NCBI GenBank assembly: GCA_965178125.1
Contig: OZ237741.1
Location: forward strand, 1,116,001-1,180,000
Length of the DNA stretch: 64,000 nucleotides
Direction of reading: 5' to 3'
DNA from: Bilabrum cf. latius
Lineage: Eukaryota
The notes under the pieces: model-generated
Databases searched by the model: none
What the model was told of the DNA's origin: nothing
What the model saw: only the letters and a program-made list of their open reading frames with translations
Shown: in pieces, positions 28,339 through 54,318 of the stretch
Layout of the letters: every line of letters starts with the position of its first letter
Position numbering within the stretch: the stretch's first letter is position 1
Program-made: the position numbers and the translations under genes

Positions 28339-29571
28339 ATGAGTTCTACTAACACACTAGTACAAGAAATCAAAGCATGGCTAGCCACACAGTACCACAA
28401 TCCCAAAACCTTGGGCAACTACCATCGCGAGTGCAACACCGTTCTCCGCTCCCTACTCCAAAAGATTGGATGCAACCCCGATGCCCCTCTATCCCAAGAA
28501 CAAATAGATACCGCCATGAAACAACTCAACAGCACCTATGCTTCGATGCGATGCTACTACGCCCTGCACCACCTAACAGCCTACCTCGGATGCCAAGGCT
28601 GCCAGAGCGAGCGCTTTCACCTGCTATGCAAAACCAAAGGCGAATGGGCGCTCAAGTTTCAATCAGATCGCGAAGAGCAACCCAAAAAGGATCTGCCTCT
28701 CACCCTTTAGCAGGCTCAAGAGCGGTTAGGTGCTGTGGATGCCACTGGGCTCAAGCAGCCCGAGCAGGTGGCACTCTTGTTTCTAACCATACTCTACTAC
28801 ATATCTCCAATCAGACCATCTGCTCTGTGCCAATTAGTTATCAGCACAGATCCATCTTTTCCCAATCGAATCGATCTCGATCGCAAGGTGCTGGTGGTGG
28901 GCAGCGACAAGGGGGTGGTCATTGGCACATCCTAGGAGCGAGATATGCCCATCAACGATCGTGTAGTGGAGATTGCCAGTCTACTATCCGATGATACACC
29001 CTTGTGGGGCAGTGGTTCAAAGAATTTCACCAGTCGGCTTGTAAAACCCTACAGCCTCAAGTGGCTGGAGTGCTACGTTTCACCCCAAGATATCCGCAAG
29101 ATCTGGAGTTCCCAGATGGCACGTGGTTTATCACTCGATCAACGCAAAGCACTGTGCAGTGCCATGGGGCATTCTAAGAAAACCCAAAAAACCTACTATT
29201 AGGAGTACAGAACCAGTGAGGAATAGGAGCATCTAAATGGATGCGATCTACCTGTACTGGGATTGAAATCGCCCAAACCTAAACCCAAGATCAAGATCAA
29301 ACCCAAGCAGATCTCACTACCTATAGTGGAAATAAAATCGCCTGAACCTATACTTAAGCCTATTAAACCTAAACATAACAAACAATCCACTCTACCTGTG
29401 ATCGAGATTGAAAGCGATGAAAAAATGAAAACTCAATCTCCTAACAAACCTACTCCACCTGAACCTTCGGTTCTCTTATCTAAACAAGATGGGTTGTACA
29501 ACCTACAAATCAATTACAAAGGGTTATCTAGAGATCAATACAAAACAATCATGGATTTACTTGAAATTTAA
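28339..29571 (+). CDS. Tyrosine recombinase / possible telomere resolvase (410 aa with TAG=Gln)
   Basis: Four ORF-track fragments in one frame joined by TAG. Catalytic-like motifs SPIRPS (R), SDKG (K), QDIRK (xxxR), MGHSKKTQKTYY (H...Y). Confidence 0.8.
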
Positions 29572-29876
29572 AAGAGTTCCACATTTTGTGTCTCACTTTT
29601 TATTTGGTTTAGTACGGATTTAATACGGAAGTTCTGTGTTCCATGTTTTTTTCACAATCTCTCTCAATATTTCATTTTTCACATTTCTCTCGAATTTTCA
29701 AATTTATCATAATATCTGTGGTTGTCAGAAAAAAGAAGGAAACATGGAACATTTCTTTTAATTTCTTTTAAATTATGGAACATAACTTAGAACAAACTTA
29801 GAACAACTCAAAAAAACTGAGAACACACTTATAATATACTCAAAACAAAATCATTTTAATCTTTGGACTAACTATA

Positions 29877-30617
29877 ATGAAACCGAAACTTCGAGTTTTG
29901 GAATTGTTTTGTGGCACAAAGTCAATCAGCAAAGCACTACACAAACTACTTGGTAATAGAGTCGAGGTTGTCTCACTAGATATCGAACAAAAATATAAAC
30001 CCACCATCTGCACTGATATCATGCAATGGGATTACAAACAAGCGTTCCCTGTGGGATACTTTGATTTTATACACGCATCCCCAGTTTGCCACTATTATAG
30101 TATGGGTAAAAGAATGGTACGGGATAAGAGCAATCTAGAAGCCAACCGGAAAGAATCAGATAAGATGGTGTAGCGAGTGTTGGACATAATTGATTTTTAC
30201 AAACCTTCGGCTTGGACCATGGAAAACCCCTCTACAGGTTGTTTAAAGACACGTGATGTGGTTGCTGGCATACCATACGTTGATGCTTGTTACTGTATGT
30301 ACGGCTATGTGTACTCAAAGAAAACTAGATTCTGGGGCAGTGCCAATCTTATCGATCAACTCCTGCCAAAGCTAAAAGTATGCTGTAAAAGCGATCATTG
30401 TCCACATTCATCAATCACCACCAAAGGTAACCTAAAGCACCATTACTCAATCGCTAGTGGACCATCAAAAGGTTATCGATCTCAAAAAATCATGTGGCAA
30501 ATGATGCGGTAGATTGTTGGAATGCACACTCAAACACCCACTGAAGTCCTGTATACCATACCTCCTGCCTTAACCGAAACCCTAATGAAAACCGTTATCG
30601 ATTTAGTGAATTCTTAA
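29877..30617 (+). CDS. C5 DNA cytosine methyltransferase, short viral type
   Basis: VLELFCGTKS (motif I), ASPVC (IV), MENP (VI), KKTRFW; two TAGs; TAA stop. Confidence 0.75.
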
Positions 30618-30718
30618 AATAATTCCATTTTTTACCTTTAATCCCGTACTAAATTGATACGGATTAAATGCAAAATAATATCTGGCTAGATACTCACACA
30701 GAGAAAATCCTGTTTTCA

Positions 30719-30880
30719 TTATCTAAGCCCAAACTTCTTGCATAATCTCTTGATCTCGGTACGGATCGCTTTGGGAGCACTAGTCTCAGCCCACCACTGG
30801 TTCAAGAAGGTTATCTCTTCGGTGTTTAACTTTCCTTTGGTAGTTTTCTTATCAAACAAGGCACTCTACTCTATTGGCAT
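30719..30880 (-). CDS. Small hypothetical protein (53 aa)
   Basis: ATG to TAA with one TAG; preceded by the conserved AAAyGATTTAAG motif at about -35. Confidence 0.55.
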
Positions 30881-30927: not shown

Positions 30928-31218
30928 TTATGTAGTATGCATAATCATCTTGGATAAAAGGCTTTTGTATTCATCCATTGATACCCATTTCATTGGTTTG
31001 CGAATTGGAAAGTATTCCCCCTCTTCTAGCTTATCCACTTTGTAAATCTTATGCAGTGAACTATTTTTATAGTATTTACCCTATTTAATTGATTTTAGAG
31101 TTGCTACACTAATTTTTAACTCAGGATACTTTTCCTTAATCAACTCAACCCCCATCTGAGCATTTCGAACTATGTATTGATCCCCCTTTACACTCAACTT
31201 AAAATTATGATTTACCAT
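30928..31218 (-). CDS. Hypothetical protein (96 aa), paralog of 35377-35679
   Basis: MVNHNFKLSVKGDQYIVRN...KYPE...GKY...YKV...WV; one TAG; conserved upstream motif. Confidence 0.65.
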
Positions 31219-31273
31219 CTTACTATATAATATCAAAAAATGTTTAAATCATTTTCCGAAATTCGATGATGAT

Positions 31274-31546
31274 TCATTTATTTGGTTATGATCAGAAAAA
31301 ACGAAAAAATGTACAGAATAATCGCAAAATGTCAAAAATGAGAGATTTTGAGATTACCGTTACTGAAAAAAAAATTATTGAAAAAAAACTCCTAAGGGCA
31401 ACTCAAAATCTCTAACCAAATATTCCTATCATAAACCAAGTATTTCCTATCATAAAAACTCTAAATTCCTATCATACTTCTGATCATAAAAATTACTTAC
31501 TACCAAATAATCCTATCATAAATCTTATCATAACCAAATAAAATAA
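31274..31546 (+). repeat. Internal inverted repeat, left arm, with CCTATCATA iteron-like units
   Basis: Imperfect reverse complement of 34176-34450; about 6 short repeat units. Confidence 0.9.
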
Positions 31547-31624
31547 TATAACCAGAATTGATTCTACATTATATATTCGATTTTATAAAAATGAATTAAA
31601 ACAATTTCTATGATTATAATATAA

Positions 31625-34174
31625 ATGAATACGATCCAATCTGATTTGATGTTAAAACAATTAGTGCCTTGCGAAACTACAGGATTCAAAGTAAAAACCA
31701 AGATGAAATTTCCAATGGAAAAGGTCGAACTAGTTAAAAAGTACCTCAAGTTTATCATGCCCAAAATCATTCACACCTCAACCAAACAATAGGATGTTCA
31801 AGCACAAACATCTATGGTTGCTAACGCATGTAACTAGTGGCTTTCGGGATCAAAAGATAGTTCGATTCCTCTTACTTTCCATGTTAAAAACAACTTCGGC
31901 AGACTGGTCTCCAAAAAAGTGATAACTCCTGTTCAAATCATTCGTGGCATTCGGCACTATTTGTTTGAAAACCTGTACACCGATCTCGATATTGCCAATG
32001 CACACATCGAGTTTGCTTTCCAATTGTATCCCGTTTTAATGAATGGAGTTGTTCCTAAAGGCATTGAGTACATTGTTAAGAATCGCAAAGCCATCTTTCA
32101 ACCATTCATGGATGAACACAAACTAACCAAGGATCAATGCAAAACTTTCGTATTTACTGTTTGTTATAAAGGTTCACTGGAAAAAACCCTTAGAAAACTT
32201 GGATTTGGTGGAGTTGCCGATCTCAAAAAAAATAGCCGATGGGCATACAATAGAATTTAGGAAGCGGCTTCCGAGTTTGAAACCCTTGCCAAGGCGGTTA
32301 AACAGCACATGGGTGATACTTGGAAAATTGTTCATTGTTCTGATAAATCCATTCAACAAAATAGATAGGATGTGAGCAAGTTTAGCATTGTGATGCAACA
32401 CATTGAACACAAAATCACACTTGTGATTGCCGATTTCTTAAAACGCAAATATAATCTCGATGTTGCGGATTTCCAATTCGATGGTGTGTTTGTTGATAGC
32501 ATAAACCATAAACTAATCGAATCAATTATTCCTGAAATCGAATAGCACATTACCAAAATTACTGGTTTTAAACTCAAATTAACCGTTAAACCAATCGATG
32601 GCACTATGGTTCGAGAAATCGTAGAAAAACTACAAACCGAAATCAGTGATGATTCCCCCGAGTTATTAGAAGGATCTGAAGTGGATAGCGATTTAGAGGC
32701 ATCCGAAGTGTTTTGGAAAATCTACAAGAATCAAGTCGTAATTACCGAATCATCTATCTATTGTCTCGATAAATCCACACATCTCTACCAGCACTACAGC
32801 AAATTCAATAAATTTCACCCTCTTTTTAATATGGTTCAAACCCTACGCTTAACTCGTAACAACAAACCTTACTCAGCCAACAACACGAACGCCAAAAACA
32901 TTGTTGCCACCATTCTGGGAGATACCTCATTAATTGTCAATGATGTTGAATTTATCGATCAGATCAATCAATCCACCAAAGGATTACTGTTTTTTACCGA
33001 TAAAGTATGGAATTTCGCCACTCAAAAATTCGAGGAGTTTGAAAACCGATTTACACTATGTAACACTGGATACCCTGCTCCTATAGATGCATTTAAACAA
33101 CTAAATATTGAAAAGGATAACTACCAATCAATCCAGTACCTCAAGAAAACCATTTTTAACGCCTTCGAAACCCAAGATGAGGTTGATTACAACTTATTTA
33201 TTTTAGCACGAGCTCTTGCCGGACATGTTGAAGATAAATATTTTTCCTGCTGGGTTGGTGAGCGCGATTGTGGTAAAGGTACTTTTATGGATATCATCAA
33301 GTGTGCCATTGGAAACTATGCAAGGGATTCAGTTCCTCCTATTTGCTCTGATGTTTCCAACAGTGATGTTGCCCAACGAAACAGATTTGCTGTTACGAGC
33401 AAGATAAATACTGGTAGATTGTGTTTTACCAATGAAGCAGGGATTGCCAAAAAATCCAATTCAACCATTACCTTGGATGGTGAGGTAATTAAGAGTGTGG
33501 TTGCAAGTGGCGGTGATGTTTTCTAGACTCGTAGAATGTTTGAAAACGAACAATCAATGAAAAACAACTGCACCTTTTTCATGCTGTTTAACTCTTATCC
33601 AAAAGCCAATCCATACGATGCCTTTCAAACTTGTTTGCCTGTTATTTTTCCAAAGAAATTCAGCAAGAAAGATCCGGATGTGGTTGGATAGGAGGATTGC
33701 ATCACAGATCTAAGAGAAAAAATTAGATAGCCTGAAATCTATATTGCGTTCTTATGGTGTTTGTTACACGCTTACAAACCCATTCCGGCACGTAAATATC
33801 CTCGACCAGAATCCTTTTCTAAATCGATAATTGAGGTTGATTCTAAACCCTCTACTCGATTTGAAGTGTTTAAAAAATGCTTTCACAGAGATGAATCATC
33901 CGTCTTGTCTTGGAACGAAATACGGGAAGTATTTGATCAATACATTAAAATCTCTCCATAGGCACTCCGTAAATTCCTAGAAAAACAAAAGTGCTCTATT
34001 CTTAGAACCTCTTACAAAGGTAAAACCCTTAAAATAGTCAAAGGAGTTGAGTTACGGGATCAATCCGAACCACAAGATGAAGAAATACAGAGTTCCGAAC
34101 TCTCACTTAGTTAGTACCAGAAGCTCTTTCCTGATAGTTTTACTGATGATGATAGCGAACAATGTCAAATTTAA
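31625..34174 (+). CDS. TVpol (family A-related primase-polymerase) fused to D5-like SF3 helicase (849 aa)
   Basis: FGRL, YTDLDIANAH (motif A), MQHIE...FQFDG (motif C), Walker A GERDCGKGT, CFTNE. Single frame across many TAGs, ending in TAA. Confidence 0.85.
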
Positions 34175-34175
34175 T

Positions 34176-34450
34176 TTATTTTTATTTGGTTATGATAAGA
34201 TTTATGATAAGAATATTTGGTTACGAATAAAATTTATGATAGGAATTATGATAGGAAATTAGAGTTTTATGATAGGAAATAATTGGTTTATGATAGGAAT
34301 ATTTGGTCTGGATTTCAAACTGCTCTTAGGAGTATTTTTTTTTTTTAATTTTTTTTTTGAGTAGCGCTAATCTCAAAATCTCAGTTTTTTGACATTTTGC
34401 GATTATTCTGAACATTTTTCATTTTTTTCTGATCATAACCAAATAAATGA
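34176..34450 (-). repeat. Internal inverted repeat, right arm
   Basis: TATGATAGG/TATGATAAG units; mirrors 31274-31546. Confidence 0.9.
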
Positions 34451-34479
34451 AAATGAAATCATCTGATGTTGTTTTTTAA

Positions 34480-34743
34480 ATGACAGACAAACAACAGTTA
34501 GATACATTCAACAAATACTTTCAACCCTCGTTATCATCCGTTCTAATTTGGAGCGAGGTGCGAGAGAGGTTTAAACAAGAGATGCAAATCTCACCAATGA
34601 AACTACGTAAATTCCTAGTAAAGCAAGGATATCAAGTTCTCAGAGCCAGATATGAAGGTAAAATTACAAAGGTAGTTAGAGGAATTGAAATAAGGAAACT
34701 AAATTTAAATAACTATTCATAGTTATGGCTCATGGCTTTTTAA
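34480..34743 (+). CDS. Stand-alone copy of the helicase C-terminal (putative DNA-binding) domain
   Basis: SSVLIWSEVRERF...ISPMKLRKFL...YEGKITKVVRGIEIR aligns with helicase SSVLSWNEIREVF...ISP*ALRKFL...YKGKTLKIVKGVELR. Confidence 0.75.
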
Positions 34744-34802
34744 ACTGGATATCATTTAAAAAAGAAATCATTTAAGATTAATTTGTTTATTATAATATAT
34801 AT

Positions 34803-35312
34803 ATGGAAAGAAGCGACTCCGATGAATCAATTCCAGAGGATTTCGATACACGATTAACTATTCAAAACAAAAATTGTTTGCTAGAAGCTGTTTCTGCTAA
34901 TCTGATATTTGAAATCGATAAATCAGCAGTTCATCGCATCGGCACTCTATACAACGAACGTGTTGATGAAGGTACTGTACCAACTGGAATCCATTGGTCA
35001 CCATTGTTGGTTCATGTTACAACTCTTGAAAATAAATATGAGAGTAAACTCCTCCCTTATCCAGATGATTTACTTGATAAAATTGTCTATCCTGAAAAAT
35101 AGATCAGGCTTAAATCATTCGATACCCTAAAATCATTCGATAGCAATAAGGAAGGCGGATTTACCACACGTTACTTACTCGATTGTATTCTGGAACTCGA
35201 ACAAGAGGCTAGATTGCAATCCAAATGGTTTGGTGGTGTTGATATCCATCATCAGTATTTTGAAGGATTGTCTCCTAGAAATGGATACTGGTACGTTAAT
35301 TGGGGATCATGA
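34803..35312 (+). CDS. Hypothetical protein (169 aa) ending HHQYFEGL...WGS
   Basis: Open through one TAG to TGA; conserved upstream motif. Confidence 0.7.
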
Positions 35313-35376
35313 CTGAACAACTGGATATCATTTTAAAAGTAAATCATTTAAGATTAATTTGATTTACTTTGTATAT

Positions 35377-35679
35377 ATGGCGAAAGGAACTCATAACATT
35401 ATTTTAACAGTAACGGATTTGCAAGGTGATTAGCATACATATTTGGTTTACAATATCAATAAGGCTATAGAATTGCTAGAGCAACAGTATCCAGATGTGC
35501 TAAAACAACATCCCGTATCTCGATTAATTTTAAACCAACTTAAGTTGGGCAAATACCCTCATTCAATCACTAATTACAAAGTTGAACAGCGACCTGAGTA
35601 TTTAGCAACTTTACCCAAAGCAATCGATTGGGTGCCTTTACATAAACAAAACGTGTTTGTGCCAATTAAATCTAATTAA
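35377..35679 (+). CDS. Hypothetical protein (100 aa), paralog of 30928-31218
   Basis: GD*HTYLVYN aligns with the paralog's GDQ-YIVRN. Confidence 0.7.
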
Positions 35680-35734
35680 TCTTAAATCATTTCATTGGTA
35701 AATGATTTAAGATTAAAATGTTATATAGTTATAT

Positions 35735-36570
35735 ATGGGATACAATATAACGATTTATGAAAACAAAACAGGTACAAAGATGAAAGGAATGTATTTGAGA
35801 GACACTGTGTATTGATGCCAGAGTGTACGCGCAACCTAGTCTCGTTAACAATCAGACATGGCAAGACCTGACAAAGCTGTGCCTGTGCGCGACCCTTGAC
35901 CGGACTGACCGGGGCTGGGAAGAGCACGTGCACTACTCCGCCGAGGAGGAGGGGGTTGGGAGGGTGGGCAAAAATTACCCAATCTCCGCCCCTCTCCTGA
36001 ACACAGAGAGGGTATGCGCGTCATCGCAAGCAATCCGTTGGCTTGGTCGCACCTTCCCGGTCGCAACCGCCATCGGAACCCAACGAGACGTTCACGCGCT
36101 CCCACTCTGGCATCAACACCGAACCCCATCCGGCGTTAGGATCAGAAACTTTGATCACAATATTCATGGATGAGTGTGATGGAGTTGGATGGCATGGATA
36201 TCCGGATGTTGGAAGGAGGGTATCGTGCCGAAAACTAAAGATGTTTTCAGAGCAACTAGAAACACTGAAAGAGTATATTGATCAAAACAAAAGTTACATA
36301 AAGCCCTGGATTGAGAAACCAAAGTATAGTTGTATAACACCGTTACCAGAAATGAGTGAGGATGAATATGAAAGACGTGTAGAAGAGGATTTAGAAAATC
36401 AGTGGCAAGATAAAATAGATAGTTACAGCGATCAATTCAAAACATTTGGAACGTTTATACAATCAGTAGCAGATACTGATCACTTTTTTGAGGTACATTC
36501 AGAACGCTAGAAACATGCAAAAGATCCTTGTAGTGTCATAGTAAGAATTAGGAAGAACTTAAGGTTATAA
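35735..36570 (+). CDS. Hypothetical gene interrupted by a GC-rich intervening sequence
   Basis: Promoter motif plus ATG at 35735; AT-rich coding resumes at about 36139 and runs to TAA 36570. Removing the insert restores the frame. Confidence 0.5.
35976..36144. repeat. 169-bp GC-rich repeat, copy 1 (right arm of a ~310-nt fold-back)
   Basis: Appears identical to 46660-46828. Confidence 0.9.
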
Positions 36571-36623
36571 ATATATCATTTCATTGGTAAATGATTTAAG
36601 ATTAAAATGTTATACAATAATAT

Positions 36624-37192
36624 ATGAACAATTTAAAATGTTGTATTTGTTTGAATGAGATAACGGATCATAGGTATTACCATAAAGGGTGTTGTGGAGA
36701 AGGCACTATTTGTAATAGTTGTATGGAAACTATGCCACCGCAGGAAAAATGCCCGACTTGCAGATAGCCGTGGATTGATCTGAACCTGAACCACAACCAC
36801 AACCACAACCAGTTCTGTAGCGGAATCAAACCAATAATGCGTCAACGCAGATAAATTTAACTAAGGAGTTTGTAGATAGAGTGGGATATAGTGAATGGAT
36901 GCGTGAGGAGTTACAACGAAAGGCAGATGAAATGTTATACCAAAATGATTTTAATATATATATTGACCAATTAGAAGCAATATACATTAATACACAAACA
37001 GAACGAGTGCATATTTGTAAGATGCGAGAAGGACCATCAATTGATGGTAGTGATTATCTAGCCATTCTGTACATATTTATACTAAAAAAACAATTGAGAA
37101 CTAGCAATCACCCACGCTATAGTGTTCAACAAGATTGTAGAATCACTTGGCGAGAAATTTACGACAAATACAAATGCATAATTGGCGAATGA
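36624..37192 (+). pseudogene. RING-like zinc finger protein with apparent frameshift near 36775
   Basis: CCIC...H.GCC...CNSC...CPTCR*P; the EPEPQPQP linker and the 36881-37192 ORF continue in another frame (mutation or sequencing error). Confidence 0.6.
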
Positions 37193-37257
37193 TTGGAATT
37201 AATAATAAATCATTTTTTAAATAAATGATTTAAGATTAAAATGATATATTATAATAT

Positions 37258-37638
37258 ATGAGAACATCAGAATCAGAAATAGAAATAAAAATAAAAAAAG
37301 TATATGGATGTCACAGTGAAATATGTACAGGATTATCGGCTATAACAGCCATAAGTTTGTTCATGTATTTTTATGGACAAGATGAATACACAACGACAGT
37401 AAAGGTAGGTATTGGAATATTTGGTTTTTTTTCATATTTATATATTTGTATGAGCATTATGTAGTCAATGTTTAGTGTTCGTGCTATTAATGAAGAAATA
37501 CGACCAGAAATTGAGTTGTTGAAAGAACGACTTCAACAATTAGAATCCTCAGGACCAAGACCGATGACAAATGTTCCAAATCAACCAAACATAATAACTA
37601 TTGGATCAACAGCACCAAGACAACAAGAATCAGTATAA
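37258..37638 (+). CDS. Small protein with two hydrophobic segments (126 aa)
   Basis: Two predicted TM stretches; one TAG; TAA stop. Confidence 0.65.
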
Positions 37639-37660
37639 AAAAATACAAACATTAATTATA

Positions 37661-38257
37661 ATGCAATGTTGTATTTGTTTATAGGATATAAATGATTGGA
37701 AATATGTTCATAATGGATGTTGTAAAGATGGCACGTTTTGTAATGAGTGCCATAATTCTTTGGATACAACCAAGTGTCCAGTTTGTAGACAAGTTAATTC
37801 AGCAACTCAACCAATTCTAAGAACTGATAGCCAATCTGTAAGATTGCATTGGGGTTCAAATTATATATTTATATTAAGGGGGAAGTTACATTCAATTGAT
37901 GATTTGCCATCAATTAGGTGGAATAACACGATATGGCGTGACACAACGATGTGGCATAAGTATGGCAAACTTCACAGAGAAAATGGTCCAGCAGTTATTG
38001 AAAAATGGATACTACTGCATCGTACAACTAAAACATGGTACAAAAATGGTAAACGTCACAGAGACGGTGATCTACCAGCAGAAACTATAAATCATCAAGG
38101 TAATGTATCTAAAAAATGGTTCATAAATGGCAAACTTCACAGAGATGATGGTCCAGCAGTTATTAATTTTCATGGAACACAAACATGGTACAAAAATGGT
38201 GTTAAAGGTAAAATTAAACCAGTGTTCGTGAAAAGAAATACACAAAATGCTAGTTAA
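37661..38257 (+). CDS. RING-like zinc finger + WYKNGKLHR (MORN-variant/YwqK-like) repeat protein
   Basis: MQCCICL*D...CPVCRQ followed by repeats of WxxNGKLHRxxGPA. Confidence 0.8.
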
Positions 38258-38418
38258 TTTGAGTTTGAGTTTCTTACAATAAGAAACCCAGAAACAAATG
38301 ATGTTTTTGCAGAAAACATTGCTCGCTGCTGTGACTAGTGATACTAGGTATCACCTCGGAATCGAACCGAGATTTGCAGAGTGGAACGCAAATTAATTGC
38401 TGTTAGTTTTCTTTGGAT

Positions 38419-38489
38419 TTGGATCATCAGGAATCGAACCTGAATCTCTAGCTTATGAGGCTAGTATGCTACCGTTACAACATAATCCA
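38419..38489 (-). tRNA. tRNA with CAT anticodon (Met)
   Basis: Acceptor TGGATTA/TGATCCA, D region TTGTAACGGTAGCAT (weak stem), anticodon arm CTAGC-CTCATAA-GCTAG, T arm TCAGG-TTCGATT-CCTGA. Confidence 0.8.
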
Positions 38490-38650
38490 ATTGGTGAATT
38501 TAATGAGTAAATACTTAGAATCAATGGATTAACAAACAGGTATTTCCATGGTATTTCCTATACTAGTACGATGAAAACTAATTCAAATTTCGAATGACAA
38601 GGAGGAAACGCTTTTAAGATTCATCGCACAAAGTATATTGAGATATTTCT

Positions 38651-40073: not shown

Positions 40074-40159
40074 GTACTATGGCAACGTGCTAATACGTGT
40101 GTTTTTATACTTCAAATACTATTCATAACTCATATAATATGATCAATGAAATTTAACTG

Positions 40160-43844: not shown

Positions 43845-43886
43845 ATATACTTGGCAAGAAATAATTTCTCATGTACGTCTATATAT

Positions 43887-44897
43887 ATGAGTTTAAGTAC
43901 CATGAGATAGGAAAACAGTAATCCAATAGCATATTCACTTTACGGAGATGGAAAGGTGATTTATTTCATGCCGAAAGTTTATGAAAACGTAAGCGACAGC
44001 GATTCTGAAGACTCAGAAGAAGAAACAGTAGATTAGGCTTACCTAAGGTACAAGATCGGCGAACGCAAGGCTAGAATCGTCAAGAATCAACCAAAGCACT
44101 GGGAGGAGTTACGAGATAGGGGTTTTAAAATCTACAAATTTAAAAACTAGAGTGGAAAGATCATCCCCTTGATGACTAAAGAGAGTCCTCGTTGTTGTAT
44201 TTACAACTTTGGAATGTCTGGAAGTGGCAAGACGACTCTTGGAATTGAGATATTGCAAACAATGAGAAACTTAAATCCAAACTTGTAGATTGTAGTAGTA
44301 AACGGAAAACCCTAGGAATCTCGATTCAAAGAATTAGGAATGATAGAAGTCCCGATACATGAACTGGTTGTTCCAGACGATTCAGCAAGATTATATCGAG
44401 ATGCAGTAATTGAGTTTAAACATACAAAGAAAGGCATGGATCCAGAACAAAGGATTGAGGGTGAGAAAGCCTTGGATAGAATGAAAGTTGCCATGAAAAG
44501 AGGTGGTAAATATACTTTAACACCGGGATTGCACAAATTACTAGAACGTCCAAGTGTGTTGATGTTTGATGATATCGAGGGTGAATTAGAATCAAGAGCC
44601 ATGTTTTTAGCGGAACACTTACTTGTTAAAGGAAGAAGTCATGGAGCGAGTGTAATATGGGTTACGCACTCTCCCAGTGATTACAGGAAAACCCGTTTGT
44701 TGCATCGAGAGTGTTAGAGTTATATTATTTACAGATAGACTCCTGAACGTGATCGTAATTTCCTAATGGATAAATATTTGAGTTTAAACAAGAAACAGAT
44801 GCATCTTTTAGAGGATTAGTTTAAATCTAGTAGATGGGTGTACATAGATAAGATTAATAGATACGCGGTCACTCAAAGCAAGTGCTTTTTATTCTGA
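43887..44897 (+). CDS. FtsK-HerA family DNA packaging ATPase
   Basis: GMSGSGKT, VLMFDDIE, GRSHGASVIWVTH, SRWV; many TAGs; TGA stop. Confidence 0.9.
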
Positions 44898-44931
44898 GAA
44901 ACTTGAAATTGATTTTCATTTGAATAATCTA

Positions 44932-45594
44932 ATGCCAGATTACTCAAAAGGAAAGATTTATATGATTTATTCAACAGAATCACCTGTGCTATTGCCATAT
45001 TATGGTAGTACAACACAAACTTTAAACTAGAGATTACAAGGGCACAAAGATAATTTTAAACGGTGGCAAGATGGGAAAACTACCAAGTGCTCCTCATTTA
45101 GATTGTTAGAACGCGATCTAGATAAGGTTGCAATCAAGTTAGTTGAAAAATGTCCTTGCTCAACTCGACAAGAACTAGAACTACGTGAAGCCGATTGGAT
45201 TAAAAGTCATCCTTGTATAAACCAGTGTGTTCCATCTGGAATTGTTGCGGGATCTATACAAGATTGGCAAAAACAATACTATCAAATTAATCGTGATAAA
45301 TACCTAAAACGTTATAAACAGTATAGTCAAGCTAATCGAGAGCGCATTCAAGTATACAGCAAACAATACCGCCAAGCTAATCGAGAGAAAATTAACGAAC
45401 GTAAAAAGCAATACCGCCAAGCTAATCGAGAGAAAATTAACGAACGGTAGCGCTAGAAGATTACTTGTGAATGTGGAACAGAAATAAGACGCGCGGGTAT
45501 AGCAGAGCATCGCCGTACTAAGAAACACCAGAAATGGCTTGAATAGCAATCAAGACCAAAGATTAAAGTGAAAATCAAGATTACTCCAATTTGA
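44932..45594 (+). CDS. GIY-YIG endonuclease with C-terminal zinc ribbon
   Basis: MPDYSKGKIY...YYGSTTQTLN*R...H, ELREADWI, CECG...H..TKKH. Confidence 0.8.
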
Positions 45595-45955
45595 CGTCAC
45601 GAAAGTACCCTTTTGGATATTTTAGCAACAGTTCCTCCCCTTGTTTAATATCCCGAGTTGGCAATAGCCATCTTTCTTTGATTATAACATTGGGTTGCAT
45701 ATCGGCACTCTTACCAAAGCCCACTCCATTTACAAAGTTAATAACGTGGGGCAATTCACGGGAACAGATCCATTTGCGGAATGGTCTCCTTAAACAGAAT
45801 CTAAAGTTACCATATTTGAGTCGAATATCAGCACTGCTCATTTCAATTCCAAAGAAATAAGCAATGGGTGTGCCTTTAGGGATATCTCTAGATGCAAATA
45901 CTCCATAACCAGCAATGGGACTTTTCTTTATTATTACTATATCATTTTGATACAT
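45581..45955 (-). CDS. Viral SET-domain protein
   Basis: KSPIAGYGVFASRDIPKG, NFVN, PNV, RDIKQGEELLLKY. Confidence 0.8.
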   Translation of the reverse strand: MYQNDIVIIKKSPIAGYGVFASRDIPKGTPIAYFFGIEMSSADIRLKYGNFRFCLRRPFRKWICSRELPHVINFVNGVGFGKSADMQPNVIIKERWLLPTRDIKQGEELLLKYPKGYFRDVKLE

Positions 45956-45999
45956 ATATGAAATAGTAGTAATTTTATTTCTAGAGTATAGTTTTTAGT

Positions 46000-46629
46000 T
46001 TAGACAGCGTGTTTGAGTGATCGATAGGTAACCATAACCTCGGAGGCTAGTTGTCCAATGCTGTCGAAAGTTACGTATTCATCACCACCAAACTCAAACT
46101 GGCGAAATTGCTCTCTGGAGTGATCGAATACTTGTTTATCAGAATCACTGAGTTGTTTTCTGATTTGTTCAGAATAGCGTTTGCTTGGAATGGCAACACA
46201 GACACTTGTTCGCTTAAAGCGTTCGAGGGCTACATCTACATCACTAGTTACGAATATCGCCTTACGATCCTTGTTGATCAACCATTCACGTTTTACATCT
46301 TCAATTGCTTGAAGCACAAACTTACGCCGGATATCGGCACTTACCCCTTTATCTTGGTGTTGTTCACCCCAAGCTAATTTTAATTGTTCGGTAGCGTTGC
46401 CAAATACTGATGCTTTGACACATTCATCAAGATCAACTAATCTAAGATTCTTGTTGCGTGATTGAAGCGTCTTGCATAGCTAACTCTTACCACATTTGCT
46501 GGGAATTAAGAGCACTAGCTTTTTACGTTGATCAAGAGGGCGTTCAAATACATATTTATAAAGAAACCAAACGGCATGATAGCCTAAAGAAACTAATCCT
46601 GTGGCTACTACGGAAGTATTTATCTCCAT
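46000..46629 (-). CDS. Hypothetical protein with N-terminal hydrophobic segment and P-loop-like motif
   Basis: LVLLIPSKCGKS*LCK...LVDLDE; 209 aa; TAA stop. Confidence 0.6.
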
Positions 46630-46659
46630 TATACTCTAGATAAGAAAAAAAATAAGAAA

Positions 46660-46828
46660 TACCCAATCTCCGCCCCTCTCCTGAACACAGAGAGGGTATG
46701 CGCGTCATCGCAAGCAATCCGTTGGCTTGGTCGCACCTTCCCGGTCGCAACCGCCATCGGAACCCAACGAGACGTTCACGCGCTCCCACTCTGGCATCAA
46801 CACCGAACCCCATCCGGCGTTAGGATCA
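46660..46828. repeat. 169-bp GC-rich repeat, copy 2 (intergenic)
   Basis: Appears identical to 35976-36144. Confidence 0.9.
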
Positions 46829-46830
46829 TA

Positions 46831-47361
46831 ATGGCAGATATACTGACCGACCCAAGAAATACCAATAACCTTTATGCCCCAAGAATGGGAACAAAGACTT
46901 TACGCTTAAATCCAGTTTTAGGTCCAAGCGATGTATTAGTTGGCAACTCAAGTATTATATTTGAGGGCTCAATAGGAGTACCTTACATCCTTTCAGAAGC
47001 AGATGAGCTTAGATTTGGTAAAAACGCACTATCCGCTGGAATGAGATTATTGTTTAGCAATGATGGCGAGAATTGTAATATTGATCTGAATGGCACAGTT
47101 AATTCCACTAATGCAGTTAAAGCCCATGGATCAGGCAGTTGGACTGGTGGTTCATCATTGGCAACCTAGACCTTTTCAGCCCCAGGTGTGGTTGCAGGTG
47201 ATCACGTTCATATTACTACAACTACTGAACCAACAGGAGGGGCAACTGAGTTTTTGAAAGTGGTTGCAGGAACTGATGAGTTTACAGTCCATCTATCCGG
47301 TAACGCAGCAGGTAATGAGGATTATGCTTTCAACTATTTGGTTCTTCCTTAGAGTTCTTAA
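46831..47361 (+). CDS. G/T/S-rich beta-structure protein, candidate fibre/spike
   Basis: 176 aa through two TAGs; function inferred from composition only. Confidence 0.5.
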
Positions 47362-47416
47362 GTTGATAATTACTGTTATTTAATTATACAATTAACTAAT
47401 AGTAACAATTTAGTTT

Positions 47417-48085
47417 TTAGTTTTGTGCTAAGTAGTATTTTTGCTCCCATTTCCATCGATCGAGAGATCCATCAGACACCGGACGGTGTTGTTTAAGATA
47501 TCTATGGACTCGGGAATAAGCACGTCTCCAACTGCACATTTTACGATCCACCATTTCTTTGGCAGTCAGAGCACCTTTATCACCAAAATAGATCCATTCA
47601 CCGTTTTCCTGCTCTTGTACCATCCATCGAAATTCGGGTTTATCACTATCAACCACTTCGACTTTAAATGGTTCAGGTTCGGGTTCGGGTTCGGGTTCGG
47701 GTTCGGGTTCGGGTTCGGGATCACCGAAACCTGGAATTACAAAAGAAACCTATCGCTCTCGTTGTAATTTAGGTGGGCTTAAATCCACAACAGATGGTGG
47801 AATGGCAGGTTTAGGTTCAGGTTTTGGAACAGGTTCGGGTTTAGGTGCAGATGGTGGAGTGGCAGGTCTAGATTCTGGTTCAGGCTCAGGTTCATCTGAA
47901 TCGCTATCAGGTTCAAGAACAGGTTCGGGTTCGGGTTCGGGTTCGGGTTCGGGTTCTGGATCGGGTTCTATTCGTAGTTCTTTACGCATTAATTCAAGGT
48001 ATTTGTCACGGGCAACTTTATCGTGAGGATAGGTTTGTTGAGCAACAGACAAAACGTGCAACCATAATTGGTTTTTGGCGTTCAT
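47417..48085 (-). CDS. Hypothetical protein with (PE)n repeats
   Basis: ORFs 47750-48085 and 47417-47656 join across a TAG; GGTTCG hexamer arrays. Confidence 0.7.
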
Positions 48086-48124
48086 ATATATTAGCTTAGA
48101 TTTAATTTGCCACGTAAGATTAAG

Positions 48125-49258
48125 ATGAATTACGATAGCGTATTTAATGCTTTAGAACAGTGGAAGTTTCCTACCTTTTCAGTTGGAAAAACAAGACGTA
48201 AGATTTCAGGTGGAAAGAAAAGTATACCAACTTGTAACTTTGGATTGGTCTAGAAAATGTTTTCTAAAGATAAATCTTGGCAACCAAGTACTGTTATGGT
48301 TAAGAATCCCGAGATTCATCAAATGCTGGTGAAGTTGGGGCGCTAGATTGATCCTAATTTGCGTTTCAGCAATATAACCGTCAACAAAAACTTTTTGTGT
48401 GCCCCTCATACAGATAGCCTAAACAAAGGTATAACCATGATTGTGGCTTTTGGAAATTACAAAGGAGGAGAGTTAGTGGTAAAAAACTAGGATGGAACTC
48501 AATAGCAAATCGATATTAATCGGAAACCGTTTTACTTTTATGGTCACAGTTAGGAGCATTGGACAGCACCGTTCACAGGAACTAGATACAGTTTGGTTTT
48601 TTATAATCATCATCATCATTTGGTAGAGAGACCGCAAACTACTGATAGCAAGGTGATTAAGGAATTGTTAGGAAAAAAGATGGAATATACACAGTTTTTC
48701 AAGTAGGAGAAAGGGGAGAAGTGGTGTGATATCGGAGCAAATATTGGTGCATTTACAGCCAGATGTTAGATGCATGGAATAGCAATCAAGAGTTATGAAC
48801 CAGATGAGGGTAATTATAATATATTGGTTTAGAATTCTGTAACCCCCGATAATTGTTTTAACCAAGCGGTGGTGGCGGATAGTGAGACCCGAGAAATCCC
48901 TTTGTATCTAGCAAAATCAGAGTGGAATCATACCACCTTAAGAAAGGTGCGAGGAAGAAAACGGGTGATTGTGCCAGCCATTAGTTTTAAAAAAGCAATC
49001 GAGGGTTGTGATTGTGTTAAGATGGATATAGAGGGAGCAGAATTGCCGATCTTGGATCAATGTGATTTTACTGGATTGAAAAAGATGGTAGTAGCCTATC
49101 ATGTTAACTATGCTCCAGATTTAGATGAGTTATTGAGGCGAATAGAGAGATTAAAGACTTTCTTTCAAAAGGTACAACATGCACGACTACCAAAGCGAGA
49201 AGCCATGGCAAACAAGAGGGTGTTTCCAAATGAGGTCATGTTGTATTGTAGTAATTGA
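48125..49258 (+). CDS. 2OG-Fe(II) dioxygenase (TET/JBP-like) fused to FkbM-family methyltransferase (377 aa)
   Basis: VNKN..CAPHTDSLN...GNYKGGEL...FNG..*EHWT.PF.GTRYSLVFY, then DIGANIGAF, YEPD, KMDIEGAE; one frame with several TAGs. Confidence 0.8.
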
Positions 49259-49372
49259 ATCCTCAATCCTGAATCTTGAAACCTCAAATTAATTTATTTC
49301 TGTATTAAAACCAAGTCGATTAATACGGAATTAATTGTAAAATCACACTCGTCTGTGTAAGTATCCAGAGGA

Positions 49373-49615
49373 TTATTCAATTTTCTTTTCTTTTTTCCAC
49401 TGGGCAAACCACGAGTGGGAACTAGCATCTTTGGTAAAATTGCCGACGTTCTTGTATCGCTCGGGGTCCTTTTTGCGCATAACGGGGTACATTTCTTTTA
49501 CAAACAGGTTATAGTTGCTGAGTTTCTATTTGGGTCTCTACTTGAGTTGTTGTTTCTTGAGTTTAACAAGTTCGTGTAGGCGTTTAAGGCTAATCTTTCG
49601 AAGATCGATATCCAT
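49373..49615 (-). CDS. Small basic protein, HMG-box-like
   Basis: KLSNYNLFVKE...WKK; 80 aa with two TAGs. Confidence 0.5.
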
Positions 49616-49641
49616 ATATTATTGTAATCTATATTATTTTC

Positions 49642-51069
49642 TTATCTTAATTTCCATTGCTTTAATAAATCCATAACTTGTTTAACGTTTGCTTTAGTTC
49701 CTTTATTGAGTAACTTGCTAACCTCTGCTTGTTGTTTACGAGTGAGTACATTGGATAAATCTTGTTTTATCCATTGAAGCGAGGTACGCTTTGCGTTTGG
49801 AAAACGTAAGAACGCCTCTAAATGGTTGGCGGTGTGATTGATTTGTGCAAGTTTAGGATTTTCGAGTGTTTTAAGGGCAGCTCGGCGTTGTTTGAGAGTA
49901 CCTTTATTGGATTGAATCACTCGTTTACTTGCTTTGTACCGCATTCCTTGTTTGCGATATTCCCGACTATCGTTTAGTAGTTGGGTTTGGATTTCCTTGG
50001 GATTGGCAAGAGGTTCGAATAGGTAAACCACAGTGATTTCTTGGTAGTATTTGCCATCAAACATGATTAAATCTAGTTTGGCAAAAGGGTCTTTGCTGAT
50101 AATAGATTGTATTCTGGGTTCTAACTGTTTTAGATTTTTGACTGTGGGTTTGTAGTGTTTGCCACCTAGTTTAAGTTCCACTGGTCGAAGGGGAGAACTT
50201 TTGGAACTCAATAATTCTACTAGATGGATTAAGTGTGGTACAAACATTGGAATATCTTTTTGTGTTAGTTGTTGAAAGAAATCGTAATCACTAGCGTACA
50301 AGGAAATAACGGGATTGGTTTGCGAACCTTTAAGTTCAATCACGGATTGTTTGGAGGTATTATCTAATTCTAAAAGATTGGCAACTTTGAGTAGTGGTTT
50401 AGCAAAGTTAAACAAGTTGAATTTGCGAATAATGGGATCAGTTTGTGCTTTACCGCCTTGAATTACAAAGTTTCCAAGACTGTGTGGATCTAGACCAGCT
50501 TTGCGATTGATGCGTTTGCTAAAAGGATTTCCAAGAGAAATAGGATCGCTACTAACGTTGTAACTTTTGGTTTTGCCTTGGGTGGCAAATCGTCGAATGG
50601 TGTTGCCAACTAAGTTTCGAGCGGTAGGGGCTGTTCCAGCATTCCAACCCACACTTTCGATTCCTAATTGCTATCCAATCTAATTGGCTAAAGCACCTCC
50701 TAATGAGTGTCCAGTAAGCACAACTTGTCCATTGCTAAGTTGTTTGATTTCCTCAACCTTTTTTTTCTCTCGTTGAAATCTATTTCCATTAGGAAGTGTG
50801 TTTTTAATGATTCGAGCATCGTCTAATAGATCCTCAGGATCGCTGACAACTGTTCCTCGAAAAGCAACAATATATTGATTTTTATCGTTACGATAGACGG
50901 ATCGTTTGGTATCGCTTAAACTGGGGATGTACATATATTTTCCTTGTTTGGAGATTATTGTGGTTCGGGCATTGGGTGATTGATAGGCTTGACCAGATGC
51001 TTTGACTAGGTGTTGCAACTATCTGACTTCGTTTAAATTACGGGCTTTTTTTCGCTTTCCAGCAAACAT
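49642..51069 (-). CDS. Lipase (alpha/beta hydrolase) fused to nucleotidyltransferase-like domain (475 aa)
   Basis: VAFRGT and GHSLGG, then KGS...ASDYD; ORFs join across TAGs. Confidence 0.7.
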
Positions 51070-51114
51070 TCTATATTACATAGTGAGATATATAATTTAG
51101 AATGAATTTATTGA

Positions 51115-52836
51115 TTAGTAAGAACCTCCCATTGCATCTGCCTAGCTTGAACTCATCACTTGACCTCCAACCATCTAAACCCCACCGCCAACGTGAGTTG
51201 TTCCAGCCCCCGCAAGAGCCATAACCTGTCCTAGAGCGGTACTATCACCAGCGACCTTGTTTACACCTGGTAGGTTGCGTACAAATTTGCTGGCTTTTTG
51301 GACAAATGGTGTAGCTTTCTTGACGAAGTTCTTGAATTTCTTCCAACCGCGTCCACCGCGTCCGCCTTGAATAGCATGTTCGCTGTCATCCTCAAGATAG
51401 ACCACAGGAGCGCTGGTGAGTGTTTTGGCTACTGGAATAACAACCTCTTTGGCTTGAATGCGTCCATTTTTAAATTCAATGTATCCGCCATACATGAAAG
51501 GGATTTGGATGGTGTAATCGCCGGCTGCGATTGCATTGGCTGTGCGGTTGGCAATGGTGAGTTGTAGGCTGGTGAGTCTAAACTCTTTCTTGACACCACT
51601 CATTAATTCGGCATCTAGTGGCATCTAACTGGGGCGTAAAGGTAAGATGCTCCAATTGGCGAGTACCTAATTGGCAAGGGTACTTTCAGCGGGGTTGAGT
51701 AGTAAACCAGCAAACTAGGCATAACTACCAACGTAACCATTTGAAACGGCTAAATCGTAAAGATCGCGAGTGCTGTGATCATCAAGAAGTTTGAATTTAT
51801 TGCCGACGGTGCAACTTATGTGAGTAATAGGTAGAGTTATATCAGGACCATAATCATCAGCACCACGATTGACCACAACATGAGGAACAAACATATCGGG
51901 AACAACGTCTTCTCTGATGATGGGAATGTTGACAACGGTTTCGCTATTAGCAAGTAAAGCAGTATTACCCACAAATTCATGAGGAATTGTTTTTTCCCAT
52001 GGGTAGGCGTAATTGGTGCTGAGAGGAACTTGGAGTGCAGCGTTCTTAGTGTGTAGACGCATATTTACAGTTCCTCCTTCTAATGCAACTCTTAAGTCGT
52101 CAAGACCAGAACGAACAAGGCTGGCGGCAACGTTATTAAGTTTTAGTTCAAGACTCCATTGATCCATGCTATTGCATGGTTTTGGGTACTCTGATTTGAA
52201 ATCAAAAGCATCGGAGGGTAGACGGCAAATTAAACTAGGAATAGTAAATCTAACGGTGGCGGCATCTACAGCCTCTAGAGTGGCATTGTACCGTAAGCCT
52301 AAACCGCGAGTGTTGGTGTTTGAGGTGGAGTTAAAACCATCCCGAAGCACATTGCTTTGTGCCAGAGGTACATATTTTGAACTGGTATCAGGTTCAGGAC
52401 CATTGGTGATAAGGGAGTTGACTTCAATGGAGTTCATACCAGCCCAGATGTATCGCATTTTGGATGGCTCGGTTTGGATATTTTGTCCTGCTTGATTGAA
52501 ATCGATTCTCTCAACAACTGATGATTCGCCGAAGGTGGCGATACCAAGGTTGTTTTTAAGGTCATCGGGGACAAGATTGCCACCACCATTGAGAGTTAGT
52601 AAGAAACTAAGGTTCTAGAATTCCATATCGGGAATACCAAGCAATCCATCAGCAGGATCAAACTGCCAACGGTAGCTCCAACCAGTGTTTGAAAGTGGTT
52701 TGGTTGATGGGTGATCCTCATAAACGGCATTACGTGCATCGGCTTGACTTTGGTACTTAAGTTGAGAGGGGGCGGTAAATTGGTAGCTTTTGCTGATTCC
52801 AATTTCTAAAGGGAGATTAGAGTTAATTTCACTCAT
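51115..52836 (-). CDS. Virophage major capsid protein (573 aa)
   Basis: Resembles Sputnik-type MCP as recalled: PDITLPI, LYDLAVSNGY, GG..WKKFKNFV, GG-rich tail. Three ORF fragments joined by TAG; TAA stop. Confidence 0.9.
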
Positions 52837-52861
52837 TATAACTAGGTTGTAGAAAAAAAAA

Positions 52862-53773
52862 TCAAGTGAATTCGCTAATTTCCTTAAACAAACCTTTGAT
52901 ATCGCCGGCTGATTCGCTGGGTAAACTTATTCTTGTTTCAACACCTCTATAATCTAACCAGTATAATTCAAAGGTTAAGTTTTTAGTACTACCAGATACA
53001 TCCAGCATTTGAGTCCATCGTGGAGTGCTACTAGCATTATATAAGAAAGATCTATAAGGAGATCCGTTGGTCATAACCACTTTAAAATCGGTAACAATAC
53101 TTTCGCTTTTATCGGAGATTTTGCCTTGTGAGTTGAGTGGTAAAGGTGTTAGTTCTTGATTAATGGGTAAACCCCGTGCTTTGATAAGGATACGGGCAAC
53201 AGGATCGATATTTTCGAGTGAATCGGTGAATTGTGTTTCGAGATCATTTTCTAGTAGTAGCCAGTTCCAACTATCGGATGGATTGCCGCTGCCTGATTCA
53301 AAACGAAAAGTGTGTAACATTCGGGTTAATCTGGGGTTGAATCCAAGACGATTGGCGGAACGAAAGGCGGTATTGGAGTTGATGGAAAATAGTTTGCCGT
53401 CGAAACTAACTGATGGTTGATCACCTGTACCAATAGATAGATTATCACATGCAACTTTGATTGAGGCATTGAGTTCGGCGACGAGATCCTGCATGTTGTA
53501 GTACAGATCCTCGGAAAAGGTAAGATCAATTATTTCGGCAGTGCCAGAATTGGGTTCAACACTAATTGAAAGTGGATTGAGTGGTGCTTGGAAAACAGGT
53601 AAGGCAACACCGTTGCTAATAAACCATCTAACAATGCCAAACAGGTATCCTTTGTTGGGTTTGAGGAAGGTTGATTGTCGTGTTTGTTCAAGATTGGTTT
53701 CAAGATCGGTTTTGCCTTGGTTGAACTACTATAGGTTTACGTATTGGTAATCAATTACGTGACTTTTTGCCAT
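52862..53773 (-). CDS. Minor capsid protein (penton)
   Basis: N-terminal QTRQSTFL..Y.FGIVRW....LPVF; C-terminal IVTDF, RW, LYWLD; lies between protease and MCP. Confidence 0.8.
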
Positions 53774-53796
53774 ATAATTACTACCAGTGATAATAA

Positions 53797-54318
53797 TTAC
53801 TGAGTTATTTGAAACACTAGTTTATCTAGATTGGGTTGATTGTTTAGTTTGCTAAGGTATTTGAGGTACTTGTGGTATTGATCATTGCTCATCTAGCGAT
53901 TGGCAAGGCGTAAGACGCAGTGTCGACCACATGTTGCGATATCATCGGAGTATTGTTGGTGTGGGTAGTGTGAATAATCAACTAACTTACCAGTTTGCCA
54001 GAGTAACTTGGTGAGGTTTTGGTGGTTGAGTTTGCGATCGTATAGGATTTGTTTTTGTGCACCAGAAAGGTTTACTTTGTGTGTATCAGGAAGTTCGCCA
54101 TAAGGATCGTAGAAATAGATAACATTGGGAGTTTGAATAACACAGGTGTAGTGACCGCTGATGGTGTTGCCGGATTGTTCTTGAGGGTAAAAAAGTACGA
54201 AATCGCCTTGGGGTAAACCATGATGTAAGATATCTTTGTATTGTATCCAATTGAAATTGGGTATGCTGAAACGATTGGCAAGATGAGTTAGTTGTGTGGG
54301 GTTTAGGGTTTGATCCAT
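53797..54318 (-). CDS. Virophage/adenain-like cysteine maturation protease
   Basis: GHYT (His), FYDPYG (Asp), HQQ (Gln), TCGRHC (Cys). Confidence 0.9.

Follow-up and report, generated by a model that had tools for sequence, protein, structure and literature searches.

An endogenous mavirus-like virophage with in-frame TAG codons, probably read as glutamine, in a eukaryote that seems to share the TAG-sense code

The idea that an altered genetic code could keep viruses out is an old one. Endogenous polinton-like viruses of Streblomastix strix were reported to use the code of their host, in which TAA and TAG specify glutamine (Gln), and this was read as a sign of long association (Bellas et al. 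2023, PMC10120064). The code with UAG as Gln and UAA kept as a stop was described from the transcriptome of the anaerobic fornicate Iotanema spirale (Panek et al. 2017, PMC5304391), whereas the code-15 crAss-like phages read TAG as Gln against the code of the host (PMC9523058). An ochre-suppressor tRNA in a metagenomic virophage was noted as a hint of a recoded host, and Met-CAT tRNAs were listed for one clade of metagenomic virophages (Paez-Espino et al. 2019, PMC6905037). According to a 2026 catalogue of giant viruses, some metagenome-assembled genomes are annotated better with alternative codes, and the isolates obtained so far all come from standard-code hosts (PMC13524828). Here, we describe an integrated virophage-like element found in a 64,000-nt stretch of the Bilabrum cf. 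latius assembly GCA_965178125.1 (contig OZ237741.1, positions 1,116,001 to 1,180,000 of the forward strand), the whole of which is referred to below as the window.

An earlier note on this DNA concerned region 28339-54318, which extends from the first open reading frame (ORF) to the last core ORF and lies within the element, and proposed that the virus itself is recoded, with TAG read as Gln in agreement with its host. Our analysis led to the view, to which we assign a probability of about 0.85, that the window contains an endogenous mavirus-like virophage residing in a GC-rich eukaryote, with TAG encoding Gln, TAA and TGA acting as stops, and a long evolution under the code of the host. The kinship with mavirus is seen in the two capsid proteins. 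The major capsid protein (44.3 bits against MCP_V20_C, cut-off 27) was similar to the mavirus capsid protein 6g45 (E = 1.4e-10 over aa 88-549) and to Sputnik V20 (E = 5.7e-5), and the penton protein to mavirus 6g41 (E = 1.8e-22 over aa 27-299) and the Sputnik minor virion protein (E = 3.5e-4). The HMMER search of 1.84 billion representatives with the capsid gave 71 matches, and the best full-length match outside the element's own small group was only 28% identical, which places the element on a deep mavirus-like branch, not near any described virophage.

Under the standard code, the longest stop-to-stop frame in the element measured 342 aa; it grew to 849 aa when TAG was taken as sense and to 501 aa when TAA was, and stayed at 342 aa for TGA. 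When TAG was read through, the longest frames in the island reached 849, 603, 489, 477, and 450 aa, and 26 ATG-started ORFs of 96-849 aa (7247 codons) occupied 84% of 28339-54318. The dozens of in-frame TAGs ascribed to essential genes in the earlier note amounted to 77, distributed among 23 of the 26 ORFs, and an extra TAG was present in a further RING ORF of 76 aa beyond this set. Eighteen ORFs ended with TAA and eight with TGA, in accordance with the claim that no viral gene needs TAG as a stop. Since the ORFs were delimited by TAA and TGA, and hence lack internal TAA and TGA by definition, three independent checks were applied. The off-frames of the same genes contained, per frame, 228 TAA, 194 TGA, and 130 TAG codons. 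Pairs of same-frame segments (at least 70 aa) parted by one TAA or TGA were found five times, none of them on the coding strand; they lay antisense to genes or within a GC-rich insert described below. The 573-aa capsid ORF terminated at the same alignment column as its 574-aa relative. TAA and TGA remain stops in the element, and no gene was split by either of them; the interruptions by TAA/TGA as common as those by TAG, a mark of ordinary decay, were thus not observed. The TAGs were spread evenly along the ORFs (20, 13, 13, 13, and 18 per fifth) and occurred within the last three codons of two ORFs versus 0.83 expected (P = 0.2), so there was no sign that TAG terminates any gene of the element. 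The coverage by ORFs of at least 100 aa was not decisive alone: it rose from 0.58 in the standard code to 0.88 if TAG is sense, but TAA as sense gave 0.89, since this reading creates numerous spurious frames where the DNA is AT-rich.

The amino acid encoded by TAG was deduced from the comparisons with relatives and paralogues. The word-based searches yielded two close relatives of the capsid protein, P0001 (72% identity, 574 aa) and P0002 (76%, 404 aa), and two fragments related to the putative packaging ATPase, P0074 (82%) and P0075 (98%). They covered eight TAG sites, at which Gln was found six times (capsid aa74, 374, 390, 404, and 565; ATPase aa277), with Thr (capsid aa554) and Ser (ATPase aa284) found once each. 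With a Gln background of 5.5%, the probability of at least six Gln residues in eight sites is 7e-7, hence the TAG columns did not lack the Gln enrichment that the recoding demands. Four of these matches, three in P0002 and one in P0074, are free of doubts about gene calling; both proteins end at a TAG or Gln position, which indicates that TAG was treated as a stop when they were called. P0002 ends right before capsid TAG404, and P0074 right before ATPase aa304, which is CAG in the element, whereas P0075, encoded on a 27,186-nt contig, extends from the first Met after ATPase TAG143 to just before TAG277. No near-full-length relative of the ATPase was found in the protein database, although DNA of 94-99% identity exists in sequencing runs. 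Proteins broken in this way would be expected if the relatives also had in-frame TAGs.

All five examples quoted in the earlier note were present in the sequence: I[TAG]SDNGSEF (aa140) and P[TAG]TNGLVERFN (aa172) in the integrase, LN[TAG]R (aa33) in the GIY-YIG-like ORF, CPTCR[TAG] (aa48) in the small RING ORF versus CPVCRQ in the 198-aa RING protein, and GD[TAG] (aa19) in orf100 (35377-35679) versus GDQ in its paralogue (30928-31218). Integrase TAG172 coincided with the invariant Gln of the P-Q-T/S-x-G motif in three of three alignments (Ty3 and PFV structures). The TAG of orf100 aligned with Gln of the paralogue; at the small RING site, the counterpart was Gln in one of its two paralogues and Tyr in the second. 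No residue except Gln recurred at the TAG sites. On this basis, TAG = Gln is taken as established for the element.

The genes flanking the element are eukaryotic and code for a Rab28-like GTPase, kynurenine aminotransferase, casein kinase II (CK2) beta, a PDE-type phosphodiesterase, and a long protein with FN3 repeats. A search with a TAG-free part of the phosphodiesterase matched only generic clusters of eukaryotic PDEs. Nine host ORFs (5699 codons) contained 26 in-frame TAGs and ended with TGA (seven) or TAA (one), and their off-frames held 148 TGA versus 62 TAG codons. Four of the host TAGs lie within gap-free conserved blocks and so do not belong to introns. Hence, TAG seems to be a sense codon in the host as well. 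Insertion of Gln at these codons by the host would follow only from host ribosomes translating the element.

The codon balance was examined in both partners. Among the Gln codons of the element there were 77 TAG, 46 CAG, and 274 CAA. The TAG/CAG ratio was 1.67 in the element versus 0.17 in the host, TTG/CTG 2.42 versus 0.37, and TTA/CTA 1.56 versus 0.39, so the TAG share of Gln codons follows the own base bias of each of them. The proximity of TAG/CAG to other synonymous T/C pairs indicates that TAG is an ordinary synonymous Gln codon at the AT-rich composition of the element. Its usage is at equilibrium with this composition, which argues for long evolution under the code and is hard to obtain by recent drift inside a GC-rich chromosome. 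The long co-evolution postulated in the earlier note was thus supported indirectly, via the codon equilibrium and via relatives of ~94% to 72% identity broken at TAG or Gln.

Further copies of the element were looked for in public sequence collections. Logan contigs from four differently labelled sources contained the element or its relatives. It was present at ~99% identity in two sources, among which the origin of the window may itself be included, and at ~94% in one 2019 run and one 'protist metagenome', where contigs of 14.6 and 10.6 kb were colinear with the element from the integrase or ATPase through the protease. The pieces found in one run, sorted by identity class, numbered 131 at 99% or above, 45, 52, and 31 below 90%. 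No relative emerged from IMG/VR, which was scanned with the capsid, with the penton, and with P0004 as the nearest distant capsid, or from one JGI metagenome. The copies were compared over positions 34401-54400 on runs X1, X5, X7, and X8. Contig joints demonstrated the absence of the C5 methylase (39045>40159), the RING-MORN2 gene (41367>42313), the GIY-YIG-like ORF (44887>45580), and orf209 (45987>46624) from some copies; the RING-MORN1 region was also missing from some of them, and the losses were exact at gene borders. Such variation corresponds to a virophage population that is polymorphic and integrates repeatedly. In one copy, the Pro/Glu repeat at 47888 was expanded in frame by 24 nt.

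The copy in the window also differs from others by a GC-rich insert of ~333 bp with a partial twin at 46659-46828 (~170 bp, 100% identical). The sequencing depth of the insert was 4506 versus ~240 for the element (~20x), and the joints 35812>36145 and 46658>46828 showed that it is absent from other copies. The high depth, together with the absence elsewhere, identifies the insert as a host repeat that jumped in, and it looks like a miniature host transposon. Both of its copies end directly upstream of start codons (of orf134 and orf176).

Several observations weigh against the proposed reading, most of them related to the identity of the amino acid. At the four host TAGs in conserved blocks, the aligned residues were Met, Lys/Glu, Glu/Asp, and His, with Gln in none of the four. 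The claim that the code matches that of the host therefore stood as far as the flanks need TAG as sense but found no Gln at conserved host sites. The residues aligned at these host sites are acceptable substitutes for Gln; if TAG = Gln, the CK2-beta site (17023-17025, +), which falls at His of human LYGLIHARY, represents a His-to-Gln change in a strongly conserved stretch. Five of the six Gln matches were provided by P0001, in which Q may itself stand for TAG if the protein was called with TAG = Gln. Relatives covered only two of the eight TAG sites in the ATPase, the other six being without a counterpart. In solved structures, integrase aa140 aligned with Thr/His and methylase aa186 and aa278 with Lys and Thr, so the distant homologues were non-Gln at three of the four comparable sites. 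The statement that TAGs occupy conserved Gln sites hence applies strictly only to P[TAG]TNG and not to I[TAG]SDNG, and the GIY-YIG label of another example was given by eye. The paralogues showed Leu at orf96 aa46, Lys/Asn at RING-MORN1 aa8, and Arg at RING-MORN2 aa287. In distant capsids (~25% identical), Gln was the commonest residue only at aa565 (10/31), with Asp in 25/31 at aa404 and Val in 16/31 at aa554; distant capsids thus say little on the TAG columns. Finally, the copy in the window may be old, as its terminal inverted repeat (TIR) arms are 91% alike and host repeats have been inserted into it. The residues found at the host TAGs, the paralogue sites with Leu, Lys, Arg, or Tyr, and the reading of UAG as Leu reported for a rhizarian (PMC5304391) could be taken to mean that TAG, as a sense codon, is either ambiguous or specific for another amino acid (e.g., Glu, Lys, Leu, or Tyr). 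Considering that only Gln recurs, at six of eight close-relative sites and at the invariant integrase position, we regard this as highly improbable.

The origin of the TAGs might also be explained by drift after endogenisation. A standard-code virophage would have integrated once and CAG would have been converted to TAG harmlessly, as the host reads TAG as Gln, so the shared code would be a consequence of the stay in the host genome rather than of an infectious virus evolving under this code. The divergence of the TIR arms and the double insertion of a high-copy host repeat agree with this scenario, as does P0001, which is full-length (574 aa) although the chance of zero TAGs is 0.002 at the TAG density of the element, so some relatives may avoid TAG. 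Nevertheless, drift appears unlikely: the GC content still amounts to 38% versus 62% with no amelioration; the excess of TAG over CAG (77 versus 46) tracks the T/C bias of the element and requires long evolution at the AT-rich composition of the element; none of the 26 ORFs is disrupted; the proteins of diverged relatives (76-98% identity) are cut at TAG or Gln positions; and the copies differ in the presence of entire accessory genes, as do those of active virophage populations. Decay of a dead element, with TAGs as nonsense mutations, would account for the lack of ORFs above 342 aa in the standard code, but is hardly conceivable, given 77 TAGs versus no gene-breaking TAA or TGA, although off-frames hold more of both than of TAG (228 and 194 versus 130). 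This stop-codon asymmetry already contradicts decay, and the homology-supported genes are free of frameshifts and enriched in Gln at TAG sites. Recoding driven by the virus, with a suppressor tRNA provided by the element or its helper, TAG used in the timing of late genes, and the host code irrelevant, has a precedent in phages that read TAG as Gln against the host code (PMC9523058), and a tRNA gene is indeed present in the element. We give this idea very little credence, since that gene, the only tRNA gene in the window, has the anticodon CAT and is not a TAG suppressor, in-frame TAGs occur also in host genes, and within the element they are not confined to capsid genes but extend over 23 of 26 ORFs, the integrase and replication genes among them. 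The evidence on both sides leaves the virophage with TAG = Gln and a long history under the host code as the preferred reading.

The features of the window are collected in Table 1.

Table 1. Coordinates of the element, its genes and repeats, and the flanking host genes with TAG in conserved blocks.
Feature	Position	Strand	Size	In-frame TAGs	Basis or remark
Casein kinase II beta exon	16888-18015	+		TAG at LYGLV[TAG]ARF	
Kynurenine aminotransferase exon	18532-19923	+		TAG in conserved block	
Rab28-like gene	20578-21585	-		2 in conserved GTPase block	
Whole integrated element	27568-55657		28,090 bp		Composition profile and inverted repeats
Left terminal inverted repeat	27568-27890	+			47.7% GC
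Candidate 5-bp target-site duplication GCAGC	left 27569-27573 (+), right 55652-55656		5 bp		Read by eye
ORF	28339-29571	+	410 aa	4	No family match
ORF	29877-30617	+	246 aa	2	Weak C5 DNA methylase match, 20.8 bits, below cut-off 22
Primase-helicase-like ORF	31625-34174	+	849 aa	10	DUF5906, 28.4 bits, cut-off 27.6
Intergenic motif sites	34751-34788, 35316-35369, 35664-35716, 36572-36605, 37199-37248, 38994-39051				
GC-rich insert	35813-36145	+	~333 bp		
Small RING ORF	36624-36854	+	76 aa	CPTCR[TAG]	
RING and MORN-like repeat protein	37661-38257	+	198 aa	1	CPVCRQ
tRNA-Met (anticodon CAT)	38418-38490	-			ARAGORN; Rfam tRNA 61.5 bits; anticodon loop read
C5 cytosine DNA methyltransferase	39063-40133	-	356 aa	4	Pfam E = 4.5e-63; HhaI methylase E = 2.9e-38
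rve integrase	40160-41365	-	401 aa	6	Pfam rve E = 9.4e-17
RING and MORN-repeat protein	41427-42296	+	289 aa	3	
Putative packaging ATPase	43887-44897	+	336 aa	8	Walker A GMSGSGKT and Walker B by eye
GIY-YIG-like ORF	44932-45594	+	220 aa	4	Motifs by eye; no Pfam match
SET-domain ORF	45581-45955	-	124 aa	0	Pfam SET 29.1 bits, cut-off 22.4
ORF with 2OG-Fe(II)/TET-JBP-like N-terminal half and FkbM methyltransferase	48125-49258	+	377 aa	8	N-terminal half below cut-off; FkbM 37.3 bits, cut-off 22.7
Lipase-like ORF	49642-51069	-	475 aa	3	GHSLGG motif; Lipase_3 21.4 bits, cut-off 22
Major capsid protein	51115-52836	-	573 aa	6	Pfam MCP_V20_C E = 1.7e-11
Penton (minor capsid) protein	52862-53773	-	303 aa	2	
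Putative cysteine protease	53797-54318	-	173 aa	1	Position by penton gene and H..D..Q..C pattern by eye
Right terminal inverted repeat	55346-55657	-			
Modifier genes	39063-40133, 29877-30617, 45581-45955, 48125-49258				

The element stands out from its flanks in the composition profile of the window (37.9% versus 62.0% GC) and is bordered by TIRs. The main arms (27568-27789 and 55436-55657) comprise 222 nt and are 91% complementary; a second stretch of 47 nt (27844-27890 and 55346-55392) extends the whole repeat to ~320 bp. Each end opens with a perfect 58-bp palindrome (27573-27630; 55592-55655), a potential hairpin, for which the roles of an integrase site, a replication origin, or a telomere-like end may be considered. 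The target-site duplication GCAGC holds if the repeat proper begins at TCTCGCAG, as GCAGC is then placed directly outside both ends; alternatively, the inverted repeat is 5 nt longer and contains one mismatch. Thus, an rve integrase and TIRs are present, with the short target duplication as a candidate only, and the element was probably inserted by its own integrase. Tandemly repeated sequence, seen as repeated ORF translations, occurs by the insertion in both host flanks (23229-27500 and 56000-56900).

Some other repeats were noticed inside the element. Tandem GTTGACA(C/T) heptamers lie at 54905-54960, within the 1 kb of non-coding sequence that separates the protease gene from the right TIR. 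A conserved intergenic motif, approximately AAATCATTTAAGATTAA, is repeated in the spacers of the small genes in the left part of the element, often as two copies in inverted orientation. Inverted repeats of ~270 nt (31272-31547 and 34169-34459), 85-98% complementary in pieces, bracket the primase-helicase gene, which therefore looks like a nested cassette. The start-codon context TATA(A/T)ATG or ATATATG was found at 14 of 26 ORF starts versus 31 of 929 of all ATGs in the element; judging from its position, the motif may act as a promoter or initiator abutting the start, which would fit near-leaderless transcripts.

The gene content varied in how firmly it could be assigned. The putative ATPase had no Pfam match, and its AlphaFold single-sequence model (mean pLDDT 35.7) was too poor for use. 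Similarly, the putative protease had no Pfam match and no significant match in the PDB, and its model was poor (pLDDT 37.8). The three RING proteins, two of them with MORN-like repeats, gave weak family matches. The PDB search with the primase-helicase produced no match. No protein-primed family B DNA polymerase was encountered, as no polymerase family was found in the 20 of 26 ORFs scanned, the other six being of 134 aa or less. Replication via a primase-helicase is also known in other virophages. The tRNA-Met gene is placed between a RING-MORN gene and orf107. The number of likely modifiers of nucleic acids or chromatin encoded by the element is unusual: the C5 methylase, a weak second methylase-like protein, the SET protein, and the TET/JBP-like protein with FkbM.

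Altogether, these data are consistent with a sequence of events in which host ribosomes would read UAG as sense, the genes of the element would be written in the same code, and the lineage would have lived under TAG = Gln for long, so that its TAGs would not be recent damage. We infer that the element is an infectious virus or was one until recently, and its capsid kinship suggests dependence on a giant virus; such a helper might also tolerate UAG = Gln. A restricted host range can reasonably be deduced from the 77 in-frame TAGs. More tentatively, and with more doubt than conviction, we may imagine a living virophage lineage circulating across related UAG = Gln protists together with a giant virus free of TAG stops, i.e., a system sealed by its code, in which the genomic copies would serve as a code-bound inducible defence.

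If the proposed reading is correct, the code of the host has been taken over completely by a virophage-type DNA virus, which, with 77 TAGs, would form no capsids in a standard-code cell. This reading predicts that the giant virus of this host avoids TAG stops and may carry in-frame TAGs itself; the giant-virus catalogues only recently weigh alternative codes (PMC13524828). The window also flags a GC-rich eukaryote with a rare reassignment limited to UAG. Standard-code gene callers fragment such elements, and the close relatives appear in databases only as pieces ending at TAG. Recoded virophages are therefore probably under-counted in surveys.

Among known systems, mavirus is closest in the capsid and penton proteins, and it shares the rve integrase and TIRs with the element described here. 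Endogenous mavirus-like elements of Cafeteria burkhardae are likewise low-GC sequences in a high-GC host, with many polymorphic copies and insertions of host transposons. The present element differs in its only remotely related capsid, in a primase-helicase in place of the protein-primed polymerase, and in the use of in-frame TAGs throughout. The search of the literature turned up no virophage described as carrying in-frame TAG in its core genes, although supplementary files may contain such cases. The hints published for virophages and giant viruses are indirect, based on a tRNA gene or gene-calling scores, and the parts of these papers on which we rely present no virophage with TAG in core genes and name no host (PMC6905037, PMC13524828).

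The code-15 phages resemble the element in having viral genes with in-frame TAG read as Gln. They differ from it in that the code of the element is also that of its host, no suppressor tRNA is encoded, and TAG extends beyond late genes into the integrase, replication, and capsid genes. The codon table reported for Iotanema spirale is the one implied here for both host and element, with UAG as sense and UAA and UGA as stops. The elements of Streblomastix strix provide the nearest parallel: they too are integrated, encode a capsid, reside in a protist genome, and use the reassigned stops of the host. A virus sharing the altered code of its host is hence already in print, and the case presented here is clear but not unprecedented, the novelty being a virophage with TAG alone reassigned. 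The Streblomastix strix elements, as described, have a capsid of the 'Metamonada group', belong to another host lineage, and read both TAA and TAG as Gln, whereas the element in the window combines a mavirus-type capsid and penton with the reassignment of TAG only, and TAA serves as its main stop (18 of 26 ORFs).

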